A stretch of DNA of 64,000 bases, from the IMG/VR virus record IMGVR_UViG_3300046328_000321, positions 32,001-96,000 of that record; one strand, 5' to 3'. Below, piece by piece: positions 3,001 through 61,079 of this stretch. The position numbers were made by a program, and so were the translations under genes. Source of the stretch: a virus. The notes below the pieces were generated by a model, which saw only the letters and a list, made by a program, of their open reading frames with translations, was not told where the DNA came from and searched no databases. Every line of letters starts with the position of its first letter. The stretch's first letter is position 1.

Positions 3001-5133
3001 TTATATTTTTTTGTATTTTTTACTGTCTCGAATATTCTGTATCAGTTCATCAACAGACAATACCTTTTTATCTGCGTCTGTCAGATTAACGGCCAGATGT
3101 CTAAGTTTTTGTTCTAATCGATGTATCACATAAGGATCTTTTTCCATACGAATTTGATCAACTGTATTTTCAATCGTCAAACGTAATTGAGATTGCTGTT
3201 GCTGCTGTCTTATTTTAACAGGATCATTATCTTGATTATTTTGTTTGTTAGAAGACAAAATATCTCTGACATTAATACCATAATAAGAAAGACCCGTACC
3301 TTTGGTTATAAACCAGAATGACAGCAACCAAGTAATCACCAGGTCATCATGTCCTCCTTCAGCATGGTCGACTCTACCATTTCTAATAACTAAAGATAAT
3401 ATCTGATCAATTATCTTAACATCATATACACTATCTGATGTTAATCTAACAGCATTCTGTAAAGTGTTACTATAAAGATCTGTGCGACTGGTCAGTCCAG
3501 TACCAGAAGTAGTAAAACCAAAGTGTTTTTTATACTCTACAAGAAGATCAGGTAAAGCCAATAAATTATACCTAAGTAATTTCTCTATACGAGTTAAGTC
3601 CGTAGGGTCTTCTACAGATTTTTGTACGACTGTATTATAAAGTCTTTTAAATGGATTAATACCTTTAGTGGGTAACATCAATAATAAATAATCAATAATG
3701 GCTGATCCTGAAGATCTTCTTTCAATGATGCAGGTAAAGTTTTCATATTTGACAAACCATTCTACCAACCACTGAGCAAACATAATTAAATTGGTTTCGT
3801 TGTAGTTACCAGCAGCTATGACTTCCCCAGTTTGTATATCTCGCATTGTCAGTCCGATATCATCCCCACCGACAGCATCACTGGTATCTATAGCCATACT
3901 GTAATGCCCTCTTACCATTCTAGAGGAAATTTCATTCTCAGATATATACCATCTGGTTATGTAACCAAATTGCTGAGACATTTCAGCATAATGGTCTAAT
4001 CTTTCAGATTTACGTATTCTCTCAGATTGTTCCACTGATAATGGGGAAGTCAAACTACCGGATGTCCAAATATTAAAAAAATCACGATCCGCGTCCTCTC
4101 CTTTAGCACCGGTGATTTCTAATGTTTCTTTTAACCACTGATCGGTATAACCCAACTGTCTATGGTTAAACGTGCAGTTTACACGAGCCTCTCCTTTTGG
4201 AGAATTTCGTCGGATTATTTTATATAGATCATTTATATCTACAGCGTCTAATAGTTTTTCATTCCAAACAGCTGAACCTTGTACTAATTCGTGAGTAAAC
4301 TTACCGTCAGGGTCGTCTTTTTTACCTGACGTTGTGGTAAAAATATTACCATACGGCTCATTCTTTCTTTTAGCTAATGAACGTGCTGCTGTTGTGGATG
4401 CCAGTGCTGCTGGTAAGGTAATACTAATATTAGGTAAGAATGCTATTTCATCAACTTTAAATACAGGCGATGTCAAACCCCGTCCTACATTTAAAGCCAT
4501 TTTCATAGATTTATTCGGGAGGTGACCTTCGTAAGCATTATTCAGATTACCTACGACTAACTTCTCTGTATTGGATACATCCCCTCTTTTTCTTTGATTT
4601 AAATAAAAAGGTAACTCATCAATAATATCTTTTAACCGTATTAAGTTAGCAGATCGGAGTTTATCGTCTTTGGTTAACAAGTTAATCTTACCAAAAGTCA
4701 TGCCTATATTTAATAAATAGGTATCTAATACATCGGAAGAAAAAGATTTACCTGTTTGACGTGGTTGTATGAGAAACAGAGTTACATGATTAAAAAATAA
4801 CCATGGTAAAGCAATACCACCGCGATTAGCGCGATATGATATTGGATCTGAAATGGAACCTCCAGGTACTCTTACAATTTCTCGAAGATAGTACCAATAG
4901 TTAATTTTACATTCAAAAACTATAGCCGCCATGCGTTCCACAGTTAGATTAGCAAAGTCGTATGGATCGACTCCCTGTAATTCTGGGTTATGTAATGCTA
5001 AAACAAAAGCATGGTTCTTTATACCCATGTCTCTGTATAAAGCAGCCATTCTTAAAAATGAAACATTCTTAGTTTTATGATCGACTATCGCATCGGGATA
5101 GTTCTTCCAATCATCAGCAAACAGTATAGTCAT
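3001..5133 (-). CDS. terL: Terminase large subunit (phiKZ gp25-like)
   Basis: Walker A QPRQTGKS, Walker B VFKVDE, nuclease motifs AIDTSDAVGGD, IERRSSG and HDDLVI. Confidence 0.9.
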   Translation of the reverse strand: MTILFADDWKNYPDAIVDHKTKNVSFLRMAALYRDMGIKNHAFVLALHNPELQGVDPYDFANLTVERMAAIVFECKINYWYYLREIVRVPGGSISDPISYRANRGGIALPWLFFNHVTLFLIQPRQTGKSFSSDVLDTYLLNIGMTFGKINLLTKDDKLRSANLIRLKDIIDELPFYLNQRKRGDVSNTEKLVVGNLNNAYEGHLPNKSMKMALNVGRGLTSPVFKVDEIAFLPNISITLPAALASTTAARSLAKRKNEPYGNIFTTTSGKKDDPDGKFTHELVQGSAVWNEKLLDAVDINDLYKIIRRNSPKGEARVNCTFNHRQLGYTDQWLKETLEITGAKGEDADRDFFNIWTSGSLTSPLSVEQSERIRKSERLDHYAEMSQQFGYITRWYISENEISSRMVRGHYSMAIDTSDAVGGDDIGLTMRDIQTGEVIAAGNYNETNLIMFAQWLVEWFVKYENFTCIIERRSSGSAIIDYLLLMLPTKGINPFKRLYNTVVQKSVEDPTDLTRIEKLLRYNLLALPDLLVEYKKHFGFTTSGTGLTSRTDLYSNTLQNAVRLTSDSVYDVKIIDQILSLVIRNGRVDHAEGGHDDLVITWLLSFWFITKGTGLSYYGINVRDILSSNKQNNQDNDPVKIRQQQQQSQLRLTIENTVDQIRMEKDPYVIHRLEQKLRHLAVNLTDADKKVLSVDELIQNIRDSKKYKKI

Positions 5134-5238
5134 GTTAAATTACCTCAAAACATAGTATGTAAAATCTGGGTAAAAAGACATCTACCAGCCCTTGTGAGGC
5201 TGGTAGATGTACTATAAATAAAGACCTTTTACATATCT

Positions 5239-5622
5239 TTATTTTTGTTTTTCGATAAGGTTCTTAAAAAACTCTATGTACTGAGATAAAAGTTCCCTAT
5301 CAAGGTCATCTTCAAATTTTCCTACTAAAGAATCGTATTTAAATACTATTTTCAAATTATTGTGTTGACGTATAAATTCAGGCATAGTTTCATCAACCTG
5401 CATGCGGATTGAATAAGCTACATATTGCACTTCATCTATACGACCGAATCTTTTGACATAATCAGTAAATACTTCTCTGTAAAAGAAAAATTCAACGCTC
5501 TGACCACCTACAGTTGTAAATTCAGATTTTTTGAATTCTGGCTGTAATGGTATTCTCTCTGTGGTGTAAAAGCGAATGCCTTTAAACATCACATAGAGTT
5601 TTATTATTAGTCTTTTGAACAT
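5239..5622 (-). CDS. Hypothetical protein
   Basis: ORF in the late minus-strand operon; GAGGA RBS before ATG at 5622. Confidence 0.6.
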   Translation of the reverse strand: MFKRLIIKLYVMFKGIRFYTTERIPLQPEFKKSEFTTVGGQSVEFFFYREVFTDYVKRFGRIDEVQYVAYSIRMQVDETMPEFIRQHNNLKIVFKYDSLVGKFEDDLDRELLSQYIEFFKNLIEKQK

Positions 5623-5648: not shown

Positions 5649-6866
5649 TCAAGAATTTCGACCTATCAAAGCTCTCAGACAAATATAAAGTATCAAAGAA
5701 GTTCTAGTAGCCATCAGTAAACTTTCAGAGAACTTACTTTTAGTGGAAAGTTTAACTATCTTACTACCCATGTCTCGTATCTTTATTAATTCTGGATCTG
5801 TGGATCGAGTAGATAAATAAAGATTTTTTAAATTAGTTAACACCATTGGGTAATCTCGCATATTACCAATAGAGTTCTGATGTAATAAATGATAACTATA
5901 AATAACTACTCTTTGTACGAACTCTTGCATCAAAACAGCATTTTCATTAATGCTGCCTTCATGCACTAGTTGTAAAACGATGTTAAGCATCTTATTAGAA
6001 CTATTTTTGTTGATACTGGCTATAACCTGTACCAACTCCTGCTTTATAAAACTGTTACGATCACTTAATATCTGTAGCATGTATTGAACATCAGTTTCTA
6101 CAGACTTTGTTTTATCTTTTAAAGTCTCTTCACCGTCTGCATCATAGAAAGTACCTCCGGTAGTATTTATTCTACCACCTGACTCTCTAACCAACATAAA
6201 CTCAGCATAATAATTCTTGATCATATCTCTGATACGACCTTGACTATCGGACACTGCATAAGTAACAGTAGAATCATCGGCAAATTTATGGAGATTATTA
6301 AGATGTATACTGTTTTTACCCGTCAGTTCATCAGAACGATAATCCACCACAGCGTGCCAACTACCAAGTTTCTTTATAAGATATTTGTTACTCAGATTAG
6401 CATATGTCATCTGAGCCACATGTGGATCGGCAGGATATTTGAAATAATGACTGAATAAAGCAGCTAAACATCTACAGAAGAAAATAACAGCCACGTCATA
6501 AGTAGCTCTCTTTTTCTTAGCCTCATTTATTAGATTACTTCTTAAAAACCCATGTATGAGATACATGCATGTCAGATTCATAATGTCACTACCGACTTTA
6601 TGACTGTGATCGATGGTATCGACAGATCTTATATCTTGAGTCAACTCAGCCAGACTTACGTCAAGCGCATCTTCATAAAATCTCTTCAGATCACTGTCTT
6701 TAAATCTAACGACATGTACACCTAACAAATTCCCACCAAAAAACTGTAAGTGTTCAGAATTTTGGTTGATGTATCCGATTTGAAACTTATACAGCTTATC
6801 AGCTAACTTAGCATCAAACTTCACATGTGCAAAATTCTTCTGAAAAGCTTCATATAAGTTTTTCAT
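5649..6866 (-). CDS. Conserved phiKZ-like protein, probably virion structural
   Basis: 405-aa ORF co-oriented with terminase; FFGGNLLGVHxVRF segment recalled from phiKZ-like phages. Confidence 0.6.
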   Translation of the reverse strand: MKNLYEAFQKNFAHVKFDAKLADKLYKFQIGYINQNSEHLQFFGGNLLGVHVVRFKDSDLKRFYEDALDVSLAELTQDIRSVDTIDHSHKVGSDIMNLTCMYLIHGFLRSNLINEAKKKRATYDVAVIFFCRCLAALFSHYFKYPADPHVAQMTYANLSNKYLIKKLGSWHAVVDYRSDELTGKNSIHLNNLHKFADDSTVTYAVSDSQGRIRDMIKNYYAEFMLVRESGGRINTTGGTFYDADGEETLKDKTKSVETDVQYMLQILSDRNSFIKQELVQVIASINKNSSNKMLNIVLQLVHEGSINENAVLMQEFVQRVVIYSYHLLHQNSIGNMRDYPMVLTNLKNLYLSTRSTDPELIKIRDMGSKIVKLSTKSKFSESLLMATRTSLILYICLRALIGRNS

Positions 6867-7393
6867 TTCAAATAACCTTTCATACTCTCTATGGCAGCTT
6901 TTCTGTTAAATACTACGTCAATACCCATACTGGTAGCCATGTCGTGTAGTAAAGCTACCTTACGAGTAGGGGTCACACATTCTACAGCCAAGATGACTTT
7001 TTTGTATTTTTTACTGTCAAGAGCAAGACGAAGTTTATCACTCGCCTGTACCATCTCCTGACCATCCATTTTGCTTCCATCAGTCGTGTAGACGTAAAGA
7101 TCTTTCTCATCGGCAGTTCCTGCTTGCTCATCCATTAATTCCATATCTTCAGGGTTCAACATATTCATGACTGATTCTTTACCGTAAGCTAGATTTAAAG
7201 CTTCACTGTAAATCTTACTCAAAGGACCCGTCATCACAACATTCTTACCTTTATTACCAGCAGCGTTGTCGGTAGCAGCAGGGGTAGCAGGTTCAGTACC
7301 TATTTTTACATCCGGTACTGGGTCAGTAGGATTCTTAACTGCCTTACTGACATTCTCAGTTGTAGATATGTTACTTATGTTAAAGATACCCAT
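6863..7393 (-). CDS. Hypothetical protein
   Basis: Start reassigned to MGIFN at 7393 (GGAG RBS); stop overlaps the next gene start. Confidence 0.65.
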   Translation of the reverse strand: MGIFNISNISTTENVSKAVKNPTDPVPDVKIGTEPATPAATDNAAGNKGKNVVMTGPLSKIYSEALNLAYGKESVMNMLNPEDMELMDEQAGTADEKDLYVYTTDGSKMDGQEMVQASDKLRLALDSKKYKKVILAVECVTPTRKVALLHDMATSMGIDVVFNRKAAIESMKGYLK

Positions 7394-7962
7394 GCTAGTA
7401 CTCCATAGTGTAGAAAGGAAAAAGTTACACACTGTGTGTAAACAGTTATCATAGCATAAATCGTTAGATCTTCTAAAAAATAAAAAAAAATATTTAAGGA
7501 TATAACTATGGGGGTCATATTTATAGGACATGCTATAAGGGGCTCCGCCCCTTATAGTAGCTGTTCCTTATTGAGATGCTCCTCTTCTAGGCTATATTAG
7601 CTTCATCGTTCCGTTACACTACACTTACGTCGACTTATGACTGCGACATAATATATATCTGAGTATAAATAAAAAATAATGAGTGTGTAAAAATAAAGGA
7701 CTCATGAGAATGTCTATAACAGTTATATCTTTATAATTGATGTAACTTCACTACTGTCTTATAAACATTTATTAAAATATAAGTTTATAAGTATAAACTA
7801 TCTATAGTAACAAATGTAGCATCCACCTTTCTATAGAGATTTTTTTTTTCGATTTTTTAGAAAAAAGGACTTTCTAGATAAGTTCAGTAACTTAAACTTT
7901 ACGTGAGACAATCCCAATCTTATACTGGGTAAGACACTCAGCAACATTCTGAAAGGAAACTG

Positions 7963-43921: not shown

Positions 43922-45757
43922 ATGGCTATCATTCACGACGACAAAATCACCACCTCTGCTCCTAAGGTACAAGACCAGCATGTTAATACCAACACTGCTG
44001 CCGTACAGCGTAATAGCTGGAACTTTGGTTCCGGTGGTAATATTTTTGCGGCACCTATTGGTCGCAGTATCGGTTCAGAAGTTTACAACGAGCTGAAAGG
44101 TTCGCTGATTGAGATTTATAAGAATGCTCAAAGTGATGCGTCTATCTCCATCTTGGACATGGATAATCAAAACGAAAGTGCTCTTGCATTTTCATGTCTG
44201 ATTGTTGCCATGCGGTTGAAGAACGTCCCCAATAAGGTTGCATATCACATTCTGATGTTGGAAGCTACCGGTGAACGTCCAAATCCAGTAATCCAATATA
44301 ATGGATCTAAGCAGATTGAACTACATCGTACTGCCGGCGATGCGATCGATGATATCCTTATTGGTAAGGCAAAGAGTATTGTTCAACGTGCATTTCCTTC
44401 TCATGAAACCCATTATACCGACACCACTGTCGTACCAGCGGGTTTCAATATGAAGGACAAAGCGGCTGTATACAAGTTGGCGTTGAATGCTGGTCTAGCC
44501 AACGGTACCGAATTGGAAACTTCTTCCAACACGTTCCAGGATCTGAATGTGAGTCAGATTCCCCAAGGTCAGCAATTGGTAGTGAACATGACCTTCGGGT
44601 CCACACCCATCGCCGATGATGTCGGTAACCTGATGCGTTCTGACTTCCAATTGAGCTTTGCTGCACAAAACAGTAAAGCTCAAAACAATCAGTCGTTGAA
44701 CAGTGGGGGTCGTGAGACTCGTATTGCTGACGTGGCTGGTTTTGTGGAAATGCTTTGGGCACCTGTGGAACCCATGGTCAATCCATACATGCCTGTGCAA
44801 CAACGACAGACACAGAAATTTGCTGCTCGTTCTGTCATCACCAGCATGACTTCTACACACAGCTATACTCCTGGATCTATGCTGTTGGCTGTGGCTATGT
44901 TGGACGCTTTGGCTCTCCATAATAACTATTACCAAGTCTTCCGTCCCTCTATGACGAAAGATCTGGATATTCGTGATGTGGGTGCCCTGAATATTGAAGG
45001 TAACTACGATAACAACCCAACCGGTGTGTCGTCTGTACTGGATACCAAGTCCTCCAGCTTCTCTCATGAGAACCTGGGTATGTTCTTGAATGCTTTAGTG
45101 CGTCCTGGTATGTTGGTGGCTATCGATTGTCCAGTCGGCGGTGCTCAATCTTGGTATACAGGTCTGTACGATGCAGCTTCCACTCGTGGTGGTTCTGCCT
45201 ATGACATCTTATACACAGCTGCGCAAGAACTGACGAATGGTAACTTTGCTCGTTTGTTCCCCAAGGGTGCACAGATGTTCTTGGATGCGGGTAATCGTAT
45301 TCATACGGGTATCTATACTGATCGCCAAGGTGCTCAGCGTGATATTCGAGATATCGACTATCTTGCAGCAGCAAACATTCTGGGTGCTAATAACGTGCAA
45401 GCGTTGCGTCAGTACACTGAAACATTCTGGAATCAGAACATCAGCTTGGCTGAGCGTTTGTCGGATCGTAAGCGTATGATTTCCAGCATGACCAACGAGA
45501 CTGCTACTTTTACCGGGTATGCAAATCGAGTTACTTTTTCTGGTACTTTCATCGAAGCACTACGTAAAGGTATCCAGGCATGTAACATGAATGTACGGAT
45601 CAACAGTCCGATGAGCGGTGCAGATTTCAACGCTCAACGCGGCGTTGCAACATTTGCTAACGCAGGTCTGATTGTACCTACCGGTTCGTTCATGGGTTTT
45701 GGCATTGCTCCTCAACACATGCAAAACATGATGCACATGGGTGGTTACCGCTATTAA
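43922..45757 (+). CDS. chmA: Chimallin (phage nuclear shell protein, phiKZ gp54-like)
   Basis: 611 aa, immediately upstream of the nvRNAP beta-prime gene, own promoter and terminator, codon bias suggesting high expression; co-occurs with PhuZ. Confidence 0.8.
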   Translation: MAIIHDDKITTSAPKVQDQHVNTNTAAVQRNSWNFGSGGNIFAAPIGRSIGSEVYNELKGSLIEIYKNAQSDASISILDMDNQNESALAFSCLIVAMRLKNVPNKVAYHILMLEATGERPNPVIQYNGSKQIELHRTAGDAIDDILIGKAKSIVQRAFPSHETHYTDTTVVPAGFNMKDKAAVYKLALNAGLANGTELETSSNTFQDLNVSQIPQGQQLVVNMTFGSTPIADDVGNLMRSDFQLSFAAQNSKAQNNQSLNSGGRETRIADVAGFVEMLWAPVEPMVNPYMPVQQRQTQKFAARSVITSMTSTHSYTPGSMLLAVAMLDALALHNNYYQVFRPSMTKDLDIRDVGALNIEGNYDNNPTGVSSVLDTKSSSFSHENLGMFLNALVRPGMLVAIDCPVGGAQSWYTGLYDAASTRGGSAYDILYTAAQELTNGNFARLFPKGAQMFLDAGNRIHTGIYTDRQGAQRDIRDIDYLAAANILGANNVQALRQYTETFWNQNISLAERLSDRKRMISSMTNETATFTGYANRVTFSGTFIEALRKGIQACNMNVRINSPMSGADFNAQRGVATFANAGLIVPTGSFMGFGIAPQHMQNMMHMGGYRY

Positions 45758-45916: not shown

Positions 45917-48748
45917 ATGCCTGTCATACAGGAAATCATTCAGTTTGATGATATGTTTCATAAACTACATCACACACCTACTCTTATTAACCACATAGCT
46001 TGCGCCACATTGGAAGATAGGGAGAAGGTAAAAGAAATTCTTACCACTCATCTTAACAGTGATCAGATAAGTTTAGTACCTTCATGTCAATGCGGAGCTA
46101 CTAAAGGTGAATATTCCAAGAGTATGGTTTGTCCCGTCTGTAATACAGAAGTAAAAACTTCTGTGACTACAGATATCGAACCAGTAGTCTGGCTGAAGCA
46201 ACCAGAGAGTGTGGATAAGTTGATCAGTCCTATCTTTCTGATGATGTTAATCAAAAGGTTTACCAAATCAGGATTCTCAGTGATCGAATGGTTATGTAAT
46301 ACAAATTACTCTTCGACATCTAAACCTCCTGATAAAGTATTAGCTAAAATCCAGACATGTGGGATTGAACGAGGTTATAACAACTTCGTTAGGAATTTTG
46401 ATCCTATTATGGATTTGTTGTTTTCATTCATTGAGTTTGCTCCTAAAACTCAAAAGTTTGAAATGAAACAAGAAGACAAAATAGATCATTTACAACAACT
46501 AATCAGAGATCACAGAAACGCGATCTTTAGTGAGTATTTACCCATCCCAAATAAGATCATTTTGATCTTTGACACCCAGCCATTAGGGACTTATACTGAT
46601 CCTTCAGTAATGAAAGCTGTGGATGCTATTAACACAATGGTGTCCATTGATCGAGATTTCTATGATCAGAGTTCAAAAACCAAACAGAACCGTACGATCA
46701 AAGCTTTGATGTTACTTTGTGATTTTTATAACGATACCTTATTGTTAATGGCACATAAGCATGGTCATTTCCGTAAGCACATGTTTGGTAGTAGAACCAA
46801 TTTTTCTTTCCGAGCTGTAATCACATCGATTACAGCCGGTAAGAATTATGATGAGATCGAAGCTCCATGGTGTATGGCAATCACAGCATTCCGTATTCAT
46901 TTGTTGAATAAACTTTTGAAATACGGTATGGGTCATAACGAAGGGTTAGGATTTTTGTATAAACATACGTACAAACACCATTCTCTTCTGGAAAGATTCA
47001 TGCAGGAGATGATTGATGAGACCCCAATGAAAGGTATTTTCATTTGTTTGCAACGCAATTAACTATTTAGGTTGCCTTTATCAGTAATGGTAAAGTAAAA
47101 TTCTCCTTAATTGACGGGAACATCCTGCTAAAAACTTGTACACCAAACTACAATAGAAATATATGTAGCGGCCAAGGTAACTACTTGGGTATGGTAAAAG
47201 AAACAAGTCTGGGATAATCCGCAGCCGAACTCTTAACCAGAAATGGAAAGAGATGGGTTCAACGACTAGTCGAAAGACGTAACTCTTAGCAAGAGTGAAA
47301 CAGGAGACCCCTTTTGTATAAAAGGGTGAAGATATAGTCTGCTCTCGTATGAATAATACGAGCGGGTGTCGTAGCACACCGGGTAAAGAGAGTAAGCTGT
47401 TTAAGCTGAGCGACTTTACTGGACAATGGCCGAGTTTGTTACAAGGGTCAGCTCAACGAGTGAAAATCACAAAGTTCAAAACTAACCCTATGGACTTGAC
47501 TATAGGGATGCACATCTTAACAGTGCGTGCTAATCATTATTGGCATTTAACCAGGTAACTGGTTAAAGAATCTCTTCGAATTGCTGGAAACTCCTTAGAG
47601 TCTCATTACCACTGCGAGCTGTAAAGCAAAGCCACGGTTTAAAAAGTATGAGAATTGGACAATCAGCAGCGAAACTTCCTACGGGAAGTACGTTCAACGA
47701 TCATCGGAGTTACGCCCGAGTAGAACCTCAAGCGAGGAAGAAGTGGAGAGCACCCTACTATTTATGAGGGTGAAGATATGATCTGTTCCTGTATGAAAAT
47801 ACAGGCGGGTGTCTTAGCACACCGAGTAAAGAGAGTAAGCTATTATAGCTGAGCGGCTTTACTGGACAATAAGCCAAATGCTGATCAAAAGGTCCTCTTA
47901 ACTTGCGAAGGTTAAGATGTATTTCCTGAATTGCTGGGAACTCTCGTTAGACTGTTGAACTAAAGCGGAGTGTGAAAACACAAACGTAAATGTTTGAAAA
48001 TCAGCAGGTAGAGACAATCAGCAGCTAAGACGCTAAAGACAGTTGTGAAACTGGCTATGCGTAAAGTTCAACGACTATCCGGTAGCACGGAGTAGACCCA
48101 TGAGGGTCAAAGTAGGAAACGTCTCTAGGAAGACGGTGATATAGTCTGCTCTCACATGAGAATGTGAGCGGGTGTCAAAGCACACCGGGTGAGGAATCGA
48201 AAGATGGCTTCACTGGACAAAAGGTTTGATGGTAGAGTATTGCCATCTCTAAACATTCTTAACTGCGGGAAACTCCTTAGAGCTTTGTTGACCAACCTGT
48301 GGTAGAAATACACACAGCGGCTGAACTAACTATTCAGATATGGTAAAACTAACAAAGATTGGACAATCCGCACCGAAGCTCCTAACTAAGTATATTAACA
48401 TATACTTACATGGAGTGTGGCCAACGACTATCCCGTAAGGGAGTACACTCAAGCGAGTGGAAACAGAATGTACCGAAAGGTAAAGATATAGTCTAATCAG
48501 ATATGAAAGTATCTGGATCCTTAAGCAAGATCGATGAGTAGTAGCGTACTCAGGTTGGTGCTAGAGAGTTATGGTTTATGGATGCTCTCAACGTATCCAT
48601 AGCTCTTGATCAGAAAATGTCAGATATGTGGTATCCACTTTCACCGGAGTTCAACATCTTCCAAATGACAAAACCATTTCAAGTATCGGGAAACATAGCG
48701 ATCCCTAAACCTAACATCGCTACCATTTCATCTTGGTTGGAAAACTAG
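45917..48748 (+). CDS. rpoC: nvRNAP beta-prime N-terminal subunit (phiKZ gp55-like), 5 exons: 45917-47059, 47430-47531, 47874-47885, 48225-48233, 48581-48748; 477 aa spliced
   Basis: Zinc finger CQC..CPVC, FRKHMFGSR, FRAVI; splicing restores QRNPSL and PNADFDGD in frame. Confidence 0.92.
47060..47429 (+). ncRNA. Group I intron 1 (370 nt, no ORF)
   Basis: P1 gcaau/guugc with U.G; P aattgacgggaa, Q aatccgcagc, R gttcaacgacta, S aagatatagtct; terminal G. Confidence 0.92.
47532..47873 (+). ncRNA. Group I intron 2 (342 nt, no ORF)
   Basis: P1 ugcu/ggca; P aattgctggaaa, Q aatcagcagc, P7 gatca/tgatc (compensatory variant); terminal G. Confidence 0.92.
47886..48224 (+). ncRNA. Group I intron 3 (339 nt, no ORF)
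   Basis: P1 gau/guc; P aattgctgggaa, Q aatcagcagc, R gttcaacgacta, S gatatagtct; terminal G. Confidence 0.9.
48234..48580 (+). ncRNA. Group I intron 4 (347 nt, no ORF)
   Basis: P1 gauggu/gccauc; P aactgcgggaaa, Q aatccgcacc, R ccaacgacta, S aagatatagtct; terminal G. Confidence 0.92.
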
Positions 48749-48749
48749 T

Positions 48750-49373
48750 ATGTATCAAATCAATGTAGTTGAAGCTGCACCCATGGCTTTTGATTACCTT
48801 GCATTCCCTAACCAGTCTCCGATAACCGCTCTGTATTTCCAAAACCAACTTCAAAACTTCAACGCTGCGTTGACTGAAACTGGTCAAAGATTTATGCAAG
48901 GTGCGAGAGAACTCTATCAGCGTATCAACGACAGTACAGCCATCCGTATGGCTAAAGCTGCCATACGACATGCTAAAGGGATGTATCAACCTAATGTTAT
49001 CATTCAGATAGACGACATCGAAGGATTTAGAAGTGCCACACCCATGATGCAAAACTACATCATGGCACAACCTGATCTTCGAGACTTGTATCATCAACAA
49101 CGTGTAAACGGATACAGTGATACGTATATAGACATTGATCCTCAACGAAATTATGGACAACATTACTATTATCGCAGGGTAATGGATGGTGTGGTACAAG
49201 ATACTGAAGTCGATGGTGAATTTCAATGGGTAGCTAAACAATATTGTGACGAGCTTCTAGAAGGTCATACGGATTTGACCAATCAAGAACGTCATGACAT
49301 CTTGTTGACCTGGGACAAGATTCAAGCGATCCTAGCTGAGGAACGTGATCCTACAGACATATTCGGTAATTGA
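48750..49373 (+). CDS. Conserved phiKZ-like core protein (gp59-like by synteny)
   Basis: Follows the beta-prime gene; MQNYIMAQP...GYSDTY...YRRVMDG. Confidence 0.6.
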   Translation: MYQINVVEAAPMAFDYLAFPNQSPITALYFQNQLQNFNAALTETGQRFMQGARELYQRINDSTAIRMAKAAIRHAKGMYQPNVIIQIDDIEGFRSATPMMQNYIMAQPDLRDLYHQQRVNGYSDTYIDIDPQRNYGQHYYYRRVMDGVVQDTEVDGEFQWVAKQYCDELLEGHTDLTNQERHDILLTWDKIQAILAEERDPTDIFGN

Positions 49374-58610: not shown

Positions 58611-61079
58611 ACTGAAACTTCAATATGTGGGTATACAAGGACTTAATTCTTACTGTATGCATAATTCATCATCACGAGCTGTGATGTTTTCTTCTCACAT
58701 TGGACAACGTCTGGTAATTGAAGGAGCTCAACAGAAACTTGTACAAACTGGGCTTGAACAAGAATTTGGTAAATATACGTTCAATGTCAAGATGCCTGAG
58801 AATGGTCGTATTGTTGCTATCTTAGACAGGTATCCTCGTGGTGTAGGTAGTAAATCTCTTAATTTCAATCCAGAGACCTATGTCTTCTTTGAACGTGAAG
58901 ACAACAAGCAAGTAGATTATATTCTCATCCCGTACAAAGCTCAGTTCCATCAGAATTTTGGTTTTAAGTACAAGATGAATAAGAAAAATATCGGAAAGCT
59001 TCAGCCAGGTGCTTATATTGCAAAAGATACTATTTTTGCAGACAGTCCTGCTGTTTCTGACAATGGTAATTTCATGTTTGGTATCAATGCCAACATTGCC
59101 CTGATGTCCATTCCCTCAGTGGCTGAAGATGGCATTATGATCTCCAGAGACTTTCTACCTAAGTTAAAGTTCAAGATTTATGATACTCGACAAGTCAACT
59201 TTGGATCTAAACAATTTCCATTGAACCTTTATGGTACTTTGGATGAAGTAAAACCATTTCCTGAGATCGGAGATAAGATTCGAGAAGATGGTATTTTGAT
59301 GGCTTTTAGAGACTTTAACACAGCTCTGTCTCCTGTTGAAATGTCTAAGATGGATTTAATGGAAGTAGATCACACTTTTGATGAATGTGTATATGTACGA
59401 GGTGGTGTGGGTACTGTGGTTGACATTAAGATTACCAGAAACAACTCACCTATTAAGAACATGCCTGTGGAAATGTCATGTTATCTGAACCGTTACTGGG
59501 AAGCCAATCAAGCTTTTTATAAGAAAGTTATTGATTTAGAAGCCGGTCTGCGTAAAGATAACCGAATGAAATTTGGAACCACTGATATTTTAACAACATC
59601 AAAGTTTGATAAATTAGTTTATGAGGCTATGGTGCATACTAACCATAACTTCAATCAGTTTAAACAACCTCTTCAACTCCAATCACGTAAGTCTACTGTA
59701 GACGAATACCAGATACAATTTACTATTGAATACACCATTGAACCCTGTGAAGGATTCAAATTGACTGATAATCACGGTTTTTACTAGCCGCTTTTGACAG
59801 AGATGTCAATCGATCATTTTCCTAATTGCGGGGAACCACCTAAAGCTTCATTGACCAACTTAGTTACGAAAGTAAGTTAAGGGCTACGCTAACTACGTAG
59901 GTATGGTAAAACTAATGAAGATATATGGGCAATCCGCACCGAAGCTCCTAACTAAGTATATTAACATATACTTACATGGAGTGTGGCCAACGACTATCCC
60001 GTAAGGGAGTAGGCTCATGAGAGTCGAAATGGAAAGCGTCCTACTGTTGAACAGAGGATGAAGATATAGTCTGTTCCTACATGAAAGTGTGGGTGGGTGT
60101 CACAGCACACCGGGTGAAGAATCGAAAGACGGCTTCACTGGACAAAAAGGGAAAAGGTGTTATTTGTAAAGTAGAAGAACCTGAGAACATGCCTGTCGAT
60201 GAAAATGGCAACCGTGCCGACATCGTCATGGATGCAGCTTCTACTATCTCACGTATGAACTTAGGCAGGCTTTACGAGCAACACATGGCATCTGCCTTGC
60301 GCGACGTTACTCAAAATGTTCGCATGTTGTTTGGATTTGAACGATTGAAACCAACATCCATTAAAGCTGAGAATTTGCTAGACAGTTTTCCAATTCAAAA
60401 GATCGAAGAAGCTCATCAGTACGTGTTAGGTTTCTATAACCTTATTTCAGAAAAGCAATATAACTTTTATTCTAAACTGACAGATCCTAAGCAAATTGCC
60501 GAGCATATCTGTGATATCATATCCGATCACGTTTATGCATATATTCCTATTGATAAACAGATCAGTAGTAAAGATATCGTGAAACGCATCGAGAATTCCA
60601 TATACAAACCCGTTTATGGAAAAATTACCTATCGAGGTAATTCTGGTGAGGTCGTGCTTACTGAACGAAATGTGCGCATTGCTCCTTTATACATGATGTT
60701 ATTGGAAAAAATCGCTGATGATTGGACAGCTGTAGCCACTGGTAATCTTCAGCTACATGGTTTACTGGCTCAGGTCAACAGACGTGAAAAGCATTCAAGA
60801 CCTCATAGGAACACTCCTGTTCGCACCATCGGTGAAACAGAGGGACGTTTATTTGTAGGTTATTGTGGAAGAGAAGCGGTCGCTGAGATGTTGGATCGTT
60901 CAGGTAATCCTCTTGTACAAAGACACATGACTAGGAACATTCTTGAAGCCAATCGTCCAACAAATATCAATGAGATTGTAGATCGTAACTTGGTTAACTA
61001 CGGTAATACCAAGTCTGTACAGATCATCAACCATATGTTTACTTGTATGGGTTTTAAAACCAAATACGTTCCAGAATGA
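58597..61079 (+). CDS. rpoB: nvRNAP beta subunit (phiKZ gp71-73-like), exons 58597-59778 and 60150-61079; 703 aa spliced
   Basis: NSSSRAVM, AEDG, spliced GFKLTDNHG-GKGVI, SRMNLGRLYE, GETE. Confidence 0.92.
59779..60149 (+). ncRNA. Group I intron 5 (371 nt, no ORF)
   Basis: P1 cggu/gccg; P aattgcggggaa, Q aatccgcacc, R ccaacgacta, S aagatatagtct; terminal G. Confidence 0.92.

Follow-up and report, generated by a model that had tools for sequence, protein, structure and literature searches.

Four tandem group I introns and two micro-exons at the catalytic loop of a predicted gp55-type RNA polymerase gene of a phiKZ-like phage

The subject of this report is a stretch of 64,000 nucleotides (nt) of viral DNA, the window, which comprises positions 32,001-96,000 of the IMG/VR record IMGVR_UViG_3300046328_000321. 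It contains a gene for a subunit of a multisubunit RNA polymerase (RNAP) in which four tandem group I introns interrupt the codons of the catalytic loop. The introns lack open reading frames (ORFs) of endonuclease size. Two of the five exons are micro-exons of 12 and 9 nt. Joined, the exons encode 477 amino acids (aa) with an intact NADFDGD motif. By its position and family the gene is the predicted counterpart of phiKZ gp55, the N-terminal beta-prime-like subunit of the non-virion RNAP. Taken as a whole, the locus is very probably the outcome of four homing invasions of a hot spot, with maintained, ORF-less ribozymes from which a spliced 477-aa subunit would be produced.

Exon-intron anatomy and the restored reading frame

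The gene was compared with PHROG 2987, a profile of length 478 which is labelled 'RNA polymerase beta subunit'. Intron scores refer to the Rfam group I intron covariance model RF00028 (gathering score 50 bits). Exons and introns are as follows.

45917-47059, plus strand: exon 1, 1143 nt, 381 codons, ends ...LQRN; PHROG 2987 positions 1-380
47060-47429, plus strand: intron 1, 370 nt, ORF-less, after residue 381; 79.1 bits
47430-47531, plus strand: exon 2, 102 nt, PSLLQGS...TVRA; PHROG 2987 positions 381-413; contiguous with exon 1 in locus L001
47532-47873, plus strand: intron 2, 342 nt, ORF-less, after residue 415; 87.7 bits
47874-47885, plus strand: exon 3, 12-nt micro-exon PNAD with the first catalytic Asp; PHROG 2987 positions 415-418
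47886-48224, plus strand: intron 3, 339 nt, ORF-less, after residue 419; 68.5 bits
48225-48233, plus strand: exon 4, 9-nt micro-exon FDG with the second catalytic Asp; PHROG 2987 positions 419-421
48234-48580, plus strand: intron 4, 347 nt, ORF-less, after residue 422; 68.4 bits
48581-48748, plus strand: exon 5, 168 nt, DALN...WLEN and stop, with the third catalytic Asp; PHROG 2987 positions 422-475

An earlier note on this DNA had given five exons, four introns and a product of 477 aa; its coordinates and arithmetic are exact. All junctions are in phase 0. A T closes each 5' exon and a G closes each intron. The joined product has no internal stop and reads ...LQRN/PSLLQGS...TVRA/PNAD/FDG/DALN..., i.e., it carries RNPSL as well as NADFDGD, and the peptide spanning the APNADFDGDALN region belongs to it. 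Each Asp codon of DFDGD is located on a separate exon, as had been claimed, and the four insertion positions fall within 41 codons around the catalytic loop. All exon lengths are divisible by three, and the reading frame is therefore kept whichever downstream 3' site a 5' site is joined to. The statement that exon skipping would preserve the frame is arithmetically correct.

Unspliced, the ORF at 45917-47062 ends with ...LQRN and covers PHROG 2987 positions 1-380 (E 4e-103). The break in the beta-prime ORF at 47059 thus coincides with the end of the profile match at 380. The further exons are collinear with the profile; the eight uncovered profile positions are the last A of exon 2, PNAD and FDG. 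Profile collinearity and NADFDGD in the joined product place the protein among the gp55-type beta-prime subunits. Full-length homologues of it carry Pfam PF00623. Homologues from cultured phages are annotated as non-virion beta-prime subunit or PHIKZ055; in fnug the pieces bear both labels. An intact NADFDGD copy elsewhere, which the earlier note had named as fatal to its reading, is absent from the 113-kilobase (kb) contig behind the window: neither NADFDGD nor DFDGD occurs contiguously in any of its frames, and the one further beta-prime-like gene located on it has a split motif as well.

The junctions are validated by relatives. A protein search retrieved 53 intron-less full-length homologues. 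All of them read QRNPSLLQGS...(A/S)xNADFDGD...N unbroken, straight through the four junctions; the last of these is bridged by an uninterrupted NADFDGDALN in intron-less homologues. We wrote a spliced-alignment dynamic programme which uses a profile of intron-less homologues and allows introns only after T and with a terminal G. It recovered exactly four introns in the window gene, after residues 381, 415, 419 and 422. In the loci L001 and L004 (77% aa identity) introns 1 and 3 are absent, and LQRNPSLLQGS and PNADFDG are contiguous. Introns are present at sites 2 and 4, and the one at site 415 holds an ORF of 532 aa, which in L001 lies at 6302-7900 and has a weak NUMOD1 match.

The same four sites are occupied in L090 (80% aa identity), which is derived from another metagenome and was separately assembled. 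The RF00028 scores of its introns are 84.5, 72.2, 65.7 and 83.4 bits. The micro-exons are identical to those of the window (21/21 nt), whereas identity is 73-77% in the larger exons and about 59-83% in the introns, with about 84% for intron 4. An identical architecture with diverged introns rules out an assembly artefact and demonstrates that the arrangement persists through divergence. Profile collinearity, the intron-less alleles and this second contig together bear out the joined RNPSL...NADFDGD of a gp55-type subunit which the earlier note had proposed.

Ribozyme cores and their pairing with the exons

RF00028 matches full-length (model positions 1-253) at 47059-47362, 47522-47805, 47849-48168 and 48209-48515, with E-values from 2e-18 to 3e-15. 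The scores are far beyond chance, and the covariance-model search that had been suggested has all four stretches above the 50-bit cut-off. A group I core, P3 to P9 including the guanosine-binding helix P7, is present in all four introns, as is the omega G at the 3' splice site (four of four). An endonuclease-sized ORF was not found in the window introns; nothing exceeds 69 aa on the coding strand. An intron-encoded endonuclease, by which homing is recognized, is thus missing and the window introns are best described as ORF-less derivatives or passengers.

The P1 helices were re-derived by hand and by script, because Rfam's placement of P1 in introns 1 and 3 missed the true splice site. All four are U.G-type helices, of 5, 5, 3 and 6 base pairs (bp), with the guide G at intron nt 12, 11, 7 and 9, respectively. 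Exon GCAAU pairs with guide GUUGC in intron 1, and exon GUGCU with guide GGCAU in intron 2. Intron 3 possesses merely GAU/GUC (3 bp), plus a P10 of UUU/AAG; its guide GUC recurs in other introns at site 419 (L009, L051, L073, L090). Intron 4 has a P1 of 6 bp, GAUGGU/GCCAUC, and a P10 of 8 bp with the start of exon 5. Exon 4 is fully used, UUU in the P10 of intron 3 and GAUGGU in the P1 of intron 4, and these pairings do not overlap. Because different bases are engaged, competition for pairing does not force an order of splicing. In 43 predicted introns of the family, exon-guide helices average 4.33 bp. Shuffled exons gave 3.38 +/- 0.20 bp, with a maximum of 4.0 in 200 shuffles.

Compensatory changes are found among orthologues. 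At site 381, GCAAU/GUUGC of the window contrasts with GGAAU/GUUCC or GAAAU/GUUUC, the latter in L090. At site 422, GAUGGU occurs with GCCAUC in the window, L032 and L037, and GACGGU with GCCGUC or GCUGUC in eight other loci, the exon changes being synonymous. Across 9 orthologues the pair types in this P1 are CG (five) and UA (three). In the P10 of intron 4 a U-A pair of the window is replaced by C-G in L004. An RNAalifold consensus of nine site-422 orthologues found P1, P3, P4-P6 and P8, with 23 of 42 pairs doubly compensated. In the Rfam alignment the P7 of intron 2, GAUCA/UGAUC, differs from GACUA/UAGUC of its neighbours by a double compensatory change. Scores of 68-88 bits together with covariation in P1, P10 and the core leave the earlier identification of four ORF-less group I introns, with U.G P1 helices and a terminal G, fully justified.

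The introns of the window are mosaics. They have blocks in common at 70-87% identity: intron 1 matches intron 2 at 87% identity in its 3' part and is similar to the intron-4 type in its 5' part.

As a side observation, the 3' ends of introns from distant loci mostly carry a conserved CTGGACAA-N(2-3)-G motif, in the window at 47419-47429, 47863-47873 and 48214-48224, and also in L042, L083, L028, L011 and L009. The CTGGACAA motif repeats the TGGACAATC segment in the P5/P4 region of the same intron. It may serve as P9.0 or in presentation of the 3' splice site.

A hot spot in the family and on the contig

The window gene is not an isolated case. About 27 of 80 IMG/VR loci (32-77% aa identity) have insertions in the same ~45 codons, with 1-4 introns each. 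Four loci, for which the output of the spliced alignment was meaningless, were not counted (L008, L025, L069, L071), and the programme misplaced the last intron in L044 and in the truncated locus L035. Insertions are located after residues 381, 413, 415, 418, 419, 422 and 423, and in phase 1 inside codons 388, 416 and 420, i.e., there are at least 10 distinct sites. Several insertions are 1.2-2.0 kb long and have room for an endonuclease gene. Long ORF-bearing introns are found in L004 at site 415 and in L010, L023, L032, L058 and L059 at sites 419-422. The called proteins of relatives fall into length classes which end with QRN, TVRA, NAD, NADFDG or NADFDGD. The catalytic-loop DNA is a family-wide, many-site hot spot; no earlier report of it was found for this family.

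Other arrays were confirmed by Rfam. L083 has three introns with micro-exons of 11 and 12 nt, L028 three introns and one micro-exon of 12 nt, L044 and L035 three introns each, and L011 and L082 two each. L042 has three, possibly four, introns and micro-exons of 15 and 12 nt, at sites which partly differ from those of the window; its predicted fourth intron (268 nt) had no Rfam match at E <= 0.01. The micro-exon array had been called extreme. This is fair, but unique it is not: L090 has the same four introns, and five other loci at least three. A separate observation concerns the site-422 intron of L044 (8002-8300). It has the expected guide GCCGTC, yet restoring ...DGDEVNF... requires an intron which ends with A, not G. 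Possible reasons are a sequencing error, degeneration of the intron and an unusual 3' splice site.

An uninterrupted gene is the rule in cultured phages (FLC9, FLC4-3B, HPP-Temi). The Pseudomonas phage fnug, of the phiKZ species (MT133560.1; L087 3501-7735), carries ORF-bearing introns at two places, behind HRN and behind NADFDGD; their ORFs, at 4703-5524 and 6338-7498, have 273 and 386 aa. The place behind HRN is the first site of the window, that behind NADFDGD is one codon past its fourth. Phage PA7 (L088 3501-6488) has one ORF-bearing intron in its gp55 gene. The records of both phages list each exon and each intron ORF as a hypothetical protein of its own, except for the short last exon of fnug (non-virion RNAP beta-prime). 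The closest cultured relative by protein is the Burkholderia phage FLC9 (41% identity), which has no introns. A megablast of the region against cultured phages gave a single 42-nt match to an intron core, nothing more.

The contig, a viral fragment of 113 kb which is ~43% complete, has nine RF00028 matches. Eight interrupt RNAP subunit genes, as judged by PHROG collinearity. The additional features, with the neighbours of the split gene, are listed here.

G000:C1:9947-12492 (= L089 948-3493): second beta-prime-like gene (PHROG 2986), upstream of the window; ADFDGD split by two introns
L089 2436-2961 and 2968-3331: the two tandem group I introns of the PHROG 2986 gene, flanking a 6-nt exon TTCGAT (FD)
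G000:C1:15897-16186 (= L089 6898-7187): intron in a large RNAP subunit gene (PHROG 3148), upstream of the window; 86 bits; between profile positions 1050 and 1052
Window 43922-45757: chimallin, the nuclear shell protein; Pfam PF25677 at 6e-30, PHROG 4795
Window 48750-49373: PHROG 3254 gene, downstream of the split RNAP gene
Window 59769-60149: intron in the RNAP beta-subunit gene (PHROG 3295); 76.4 bits; between profile positions 402 and 403, ...KLTD/GKGVICK...

The PHROG 2986 gene repeats the situation in a paralogue. Its first exon covers profile positions 4-484 and ends ...LGAD; the last covers 487-539 and starts GDTMSL. The joined product of 551 aa reads ...LGADFDGDTMSL..., by which GADFDGD is restored. 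The first of its introns, at the homologous position AD/FD, is similar to window intron 3. The beta-gene intron and intron 4 have an identical block of 82 nt (48364-48445 = 59930-60011), and the 3' tail of the beta-gene intron differs by 4 nt from that of intron 3.

Chimallin identifies the phage as a nucleus-forming, phiKZ-like jumbo phage. Its gene lies immediately upstream of the split RNAP gene, as gp54 precedes gp55 in phiKZ-type phages, and the PHROG 3254 gene follows at the 3' side. HPP-Temi has the order shell protein, RNAP gene and a downstream ORF of similar size. In FLC9 and fnug the gene order looks alike; there the flanking genes are annotated merely as hypothetical proteins.

Elsewhere in the window, a group I intron core of 62 bits (31576-31824) was seen; an HNH endonuclease ORF (31039-31536) ends shortly before it. 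Downstream of the core lie a tRNA-Arg(TCT) at 32008-32084 and a second HNH ORF at 32160-32735. Rfam has a further tRNA match at 32785-32858, where ARAGORN made no call.

Origin of the array and its significance

How might such an array arise? We propose that a gp55-type gene of a chimallivirus non-virion RNAP was invaded four times by group I (IA-like) introns. DNA which encodes an active site is invariant and essential and would thus be an ideal target for homing endonucleases. The endonuclease genes would later have been lost and the ribozyme cores, structurally constrained, have remained intact, each with a guide that matches its own upstream exon. The introns would persist because imprecise loss would destroy an essential enzyme. 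By GTP-initiated transesterification the four ribozymes would excise themselves, and exons of 1143, 102, 12, 9 and 168 nt would be ligated into the messenger RNA. Repeated homing into a hot spot shared by the family would then have ended in the present array. Endonuclease-bearing introns at the same sites do exist in relatives. A published rationale for introns at active sites (PMC12908238) and the case of PhiPA3 gp210 (PMC11620839) fit such a homing account. We infer from sequence that the introns actually self-splice, that they originated by homing and subsequently lost their endonucleases, and that occupied sites may be protected.

Several points weigh against this explanation. Splicing of the window gene is a prediction from metagenomic sequence, and the predicted RNAP introns of phiKZ gave no spliced product in the long-read complementary DNA of one study (PMC10914365). 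As the contig is ~43% complete, the genome may possess an uninterrupted copy elsewhere. The P1 of intron 3 is weak at 3 bp, no convincing P10 was found for introns 1 and 2, and none of the intron-2 orthologues in L004 and L090 yielded a convincing guide sequence.

Could the gene be a decaying pseudogene, or the tandem introns an artefact of metagenome assembly from repeated intron sequence? The contig is a fragment, and the mosaic blocks together with the 82 nt identical to the beta-gene intron could mislead assemblers. Yet each intron has a distinct guide which is matched to its own exon, the exons are all in frame with the invariant residues kept, the four cores are well above the Rfam cut-off, and L090, from another sample and an independent assembly, has the same architecture with diverged introns. 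On these grounds both readings were rejected; the chance that either holds is very slim. It is also conceivable, yet improbable, that the array is a regulatory device in which slow, ordered or conditional splicing, or dead in-frame isoforms, would tune when, or how much, non-virion RNAP is made and in this way gate middle and late transcription. Exon lengths in multiples of 3 nt and U/G boundaries keep any skipping in frame, the four-intron state is kept in two phages at 80% aa identity, and tandem group I introns of phages are documented to skip exons in SIOphi and Twort orf142 (PMC11878797). However, intron number varies freely among relatives (4, 4 and 2 at 77-80% identity, none in most), which is better explained by selfish gain and loss than by a conserved regulator, and no regulatory element or condition sensor is visible in the sequence.

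A role which is compatible with a selfish origin is protection, i.e., occupied sites would be kept mainly as a shield against homing endonucleases of co-infecting relatives. Long ORF-bearing introns reside at the same sites in relatives (L004, L010, L023, L032, L058, L059, fnug), and the endonuclease of an RNAP-gene intron, PhiPA3 gp210, can severely impair a co-infecting phage in which the intron is absent (PMC11620839). Occupancy, however, shields against cognate enzymes only, and most members of the family thrive without an intron in the catalytic loop. As the main reason for persistence we regard protection as possible, with the balance against it. A more elaborate proposal is that the catalytic-loop DNA of both multisubunit RNAPs is a homing battleground whose arrays were co-opted, such that splicing order or skipping tunes active versus dominant-negative beta-prime. 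Transcription and splicing in a compartment free of ribosomes would permit a regulated supply of the two forms; we consider this proposal rather unlikely. On the same view the micro-exons, down to 9 nt and in the paralogue 6 nt, would be close to the shortest that P1/P10 recognition physically allows, a suggestion to which we likewise give little credence. We return to the preferred explanation, repeated homing with loss of endonucleases. The anatomy is secure; any function beyond selfish persistence is speculative.

Stacks of many group I introns separated by very short exons, driven by homing endonucleases, are familiar from fungal mitochondrial cox1. These differ from the window gene in that they are organellar, often depend on maturases and are spread across the whole gene, not confined to one catalytic loop. 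Among phages, introns in phiKZ-type RNAP genes are known, as the earlier note stated correctly (PMC11620839, PMC11512511; the fnug and PA7 records). PhiPA3 gp210 belongs to an intron in the virion RNAP beta gene, and this endonuclease is used in phage competition (PMC11620839). Introns were reported in phiKZ gp55 and gp180, with the endonucleases gp56, gp72 and gp179 (PMC11512511, PMC10914365). These cases, including 201phi2-1 gp273/274, share with the window gene the family, the intron class and insertion at conserved catalytic residues. They comprise one or two introns per gene, usually with an HNH ORF, whereas the window gene has four ORF-less introns and exons of 12 and 9 nt.

Multiple introns per phage gene are likewise known. 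The accessible part of PMC11878797 cites a paper on three group I introns with exon skipping in Twort orf142, and reports two or three introns with a small internal exon and skipping in DNA polymerase, terminase and ribonucleotide reductase genes of Bastillevirinae. In that part of the source three introns per gene is the maximum, and exons as short as 6, 9 or 12 nt are not reported. The host genes and the phage lineage differ from those considered here. A further difference is that splicing in a nucleus-forming phage would be separated from the ribosomes. Thus, group I introns in jumbo-phage RNAP genes and phage genes with two or three introns and small exons are established. Literature searches on NADFDGD with intron, and on micro-exon with group I intron and phage, returned nothing relevant. 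Nor did we find a published case in which four introns are packed into 41 codons, in which exons as short as 12, 9 or 6 nt separate phage group I introns, or in which a catalytic Asp triad is distributed among three exons.

Gene callers cut the interrupted genes short, at QRN, TVRA, NAD or FDG. In many metagenomic genomes and in some of cultured phages (fnug, PA7), catalytic subunits are consequently overlooked or wrongly annotated. The arrays also bear on a published proposal in which intron activity gave rise to the split RNAP genes of jumbo phages (PMC7598289). For specialists in RNA catalysis they show how densely group I introns can be packed, as one ribozyme must accept each micro-exon as its 3' exon and the following ribozyme must use it as its P1 substrate. 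For those interested in phage conflict, a hot spot at the active site of the RNAP bears on the warfare by intron endonucleases among co-infecting phages, as between PhiPA3 and phiKZ.

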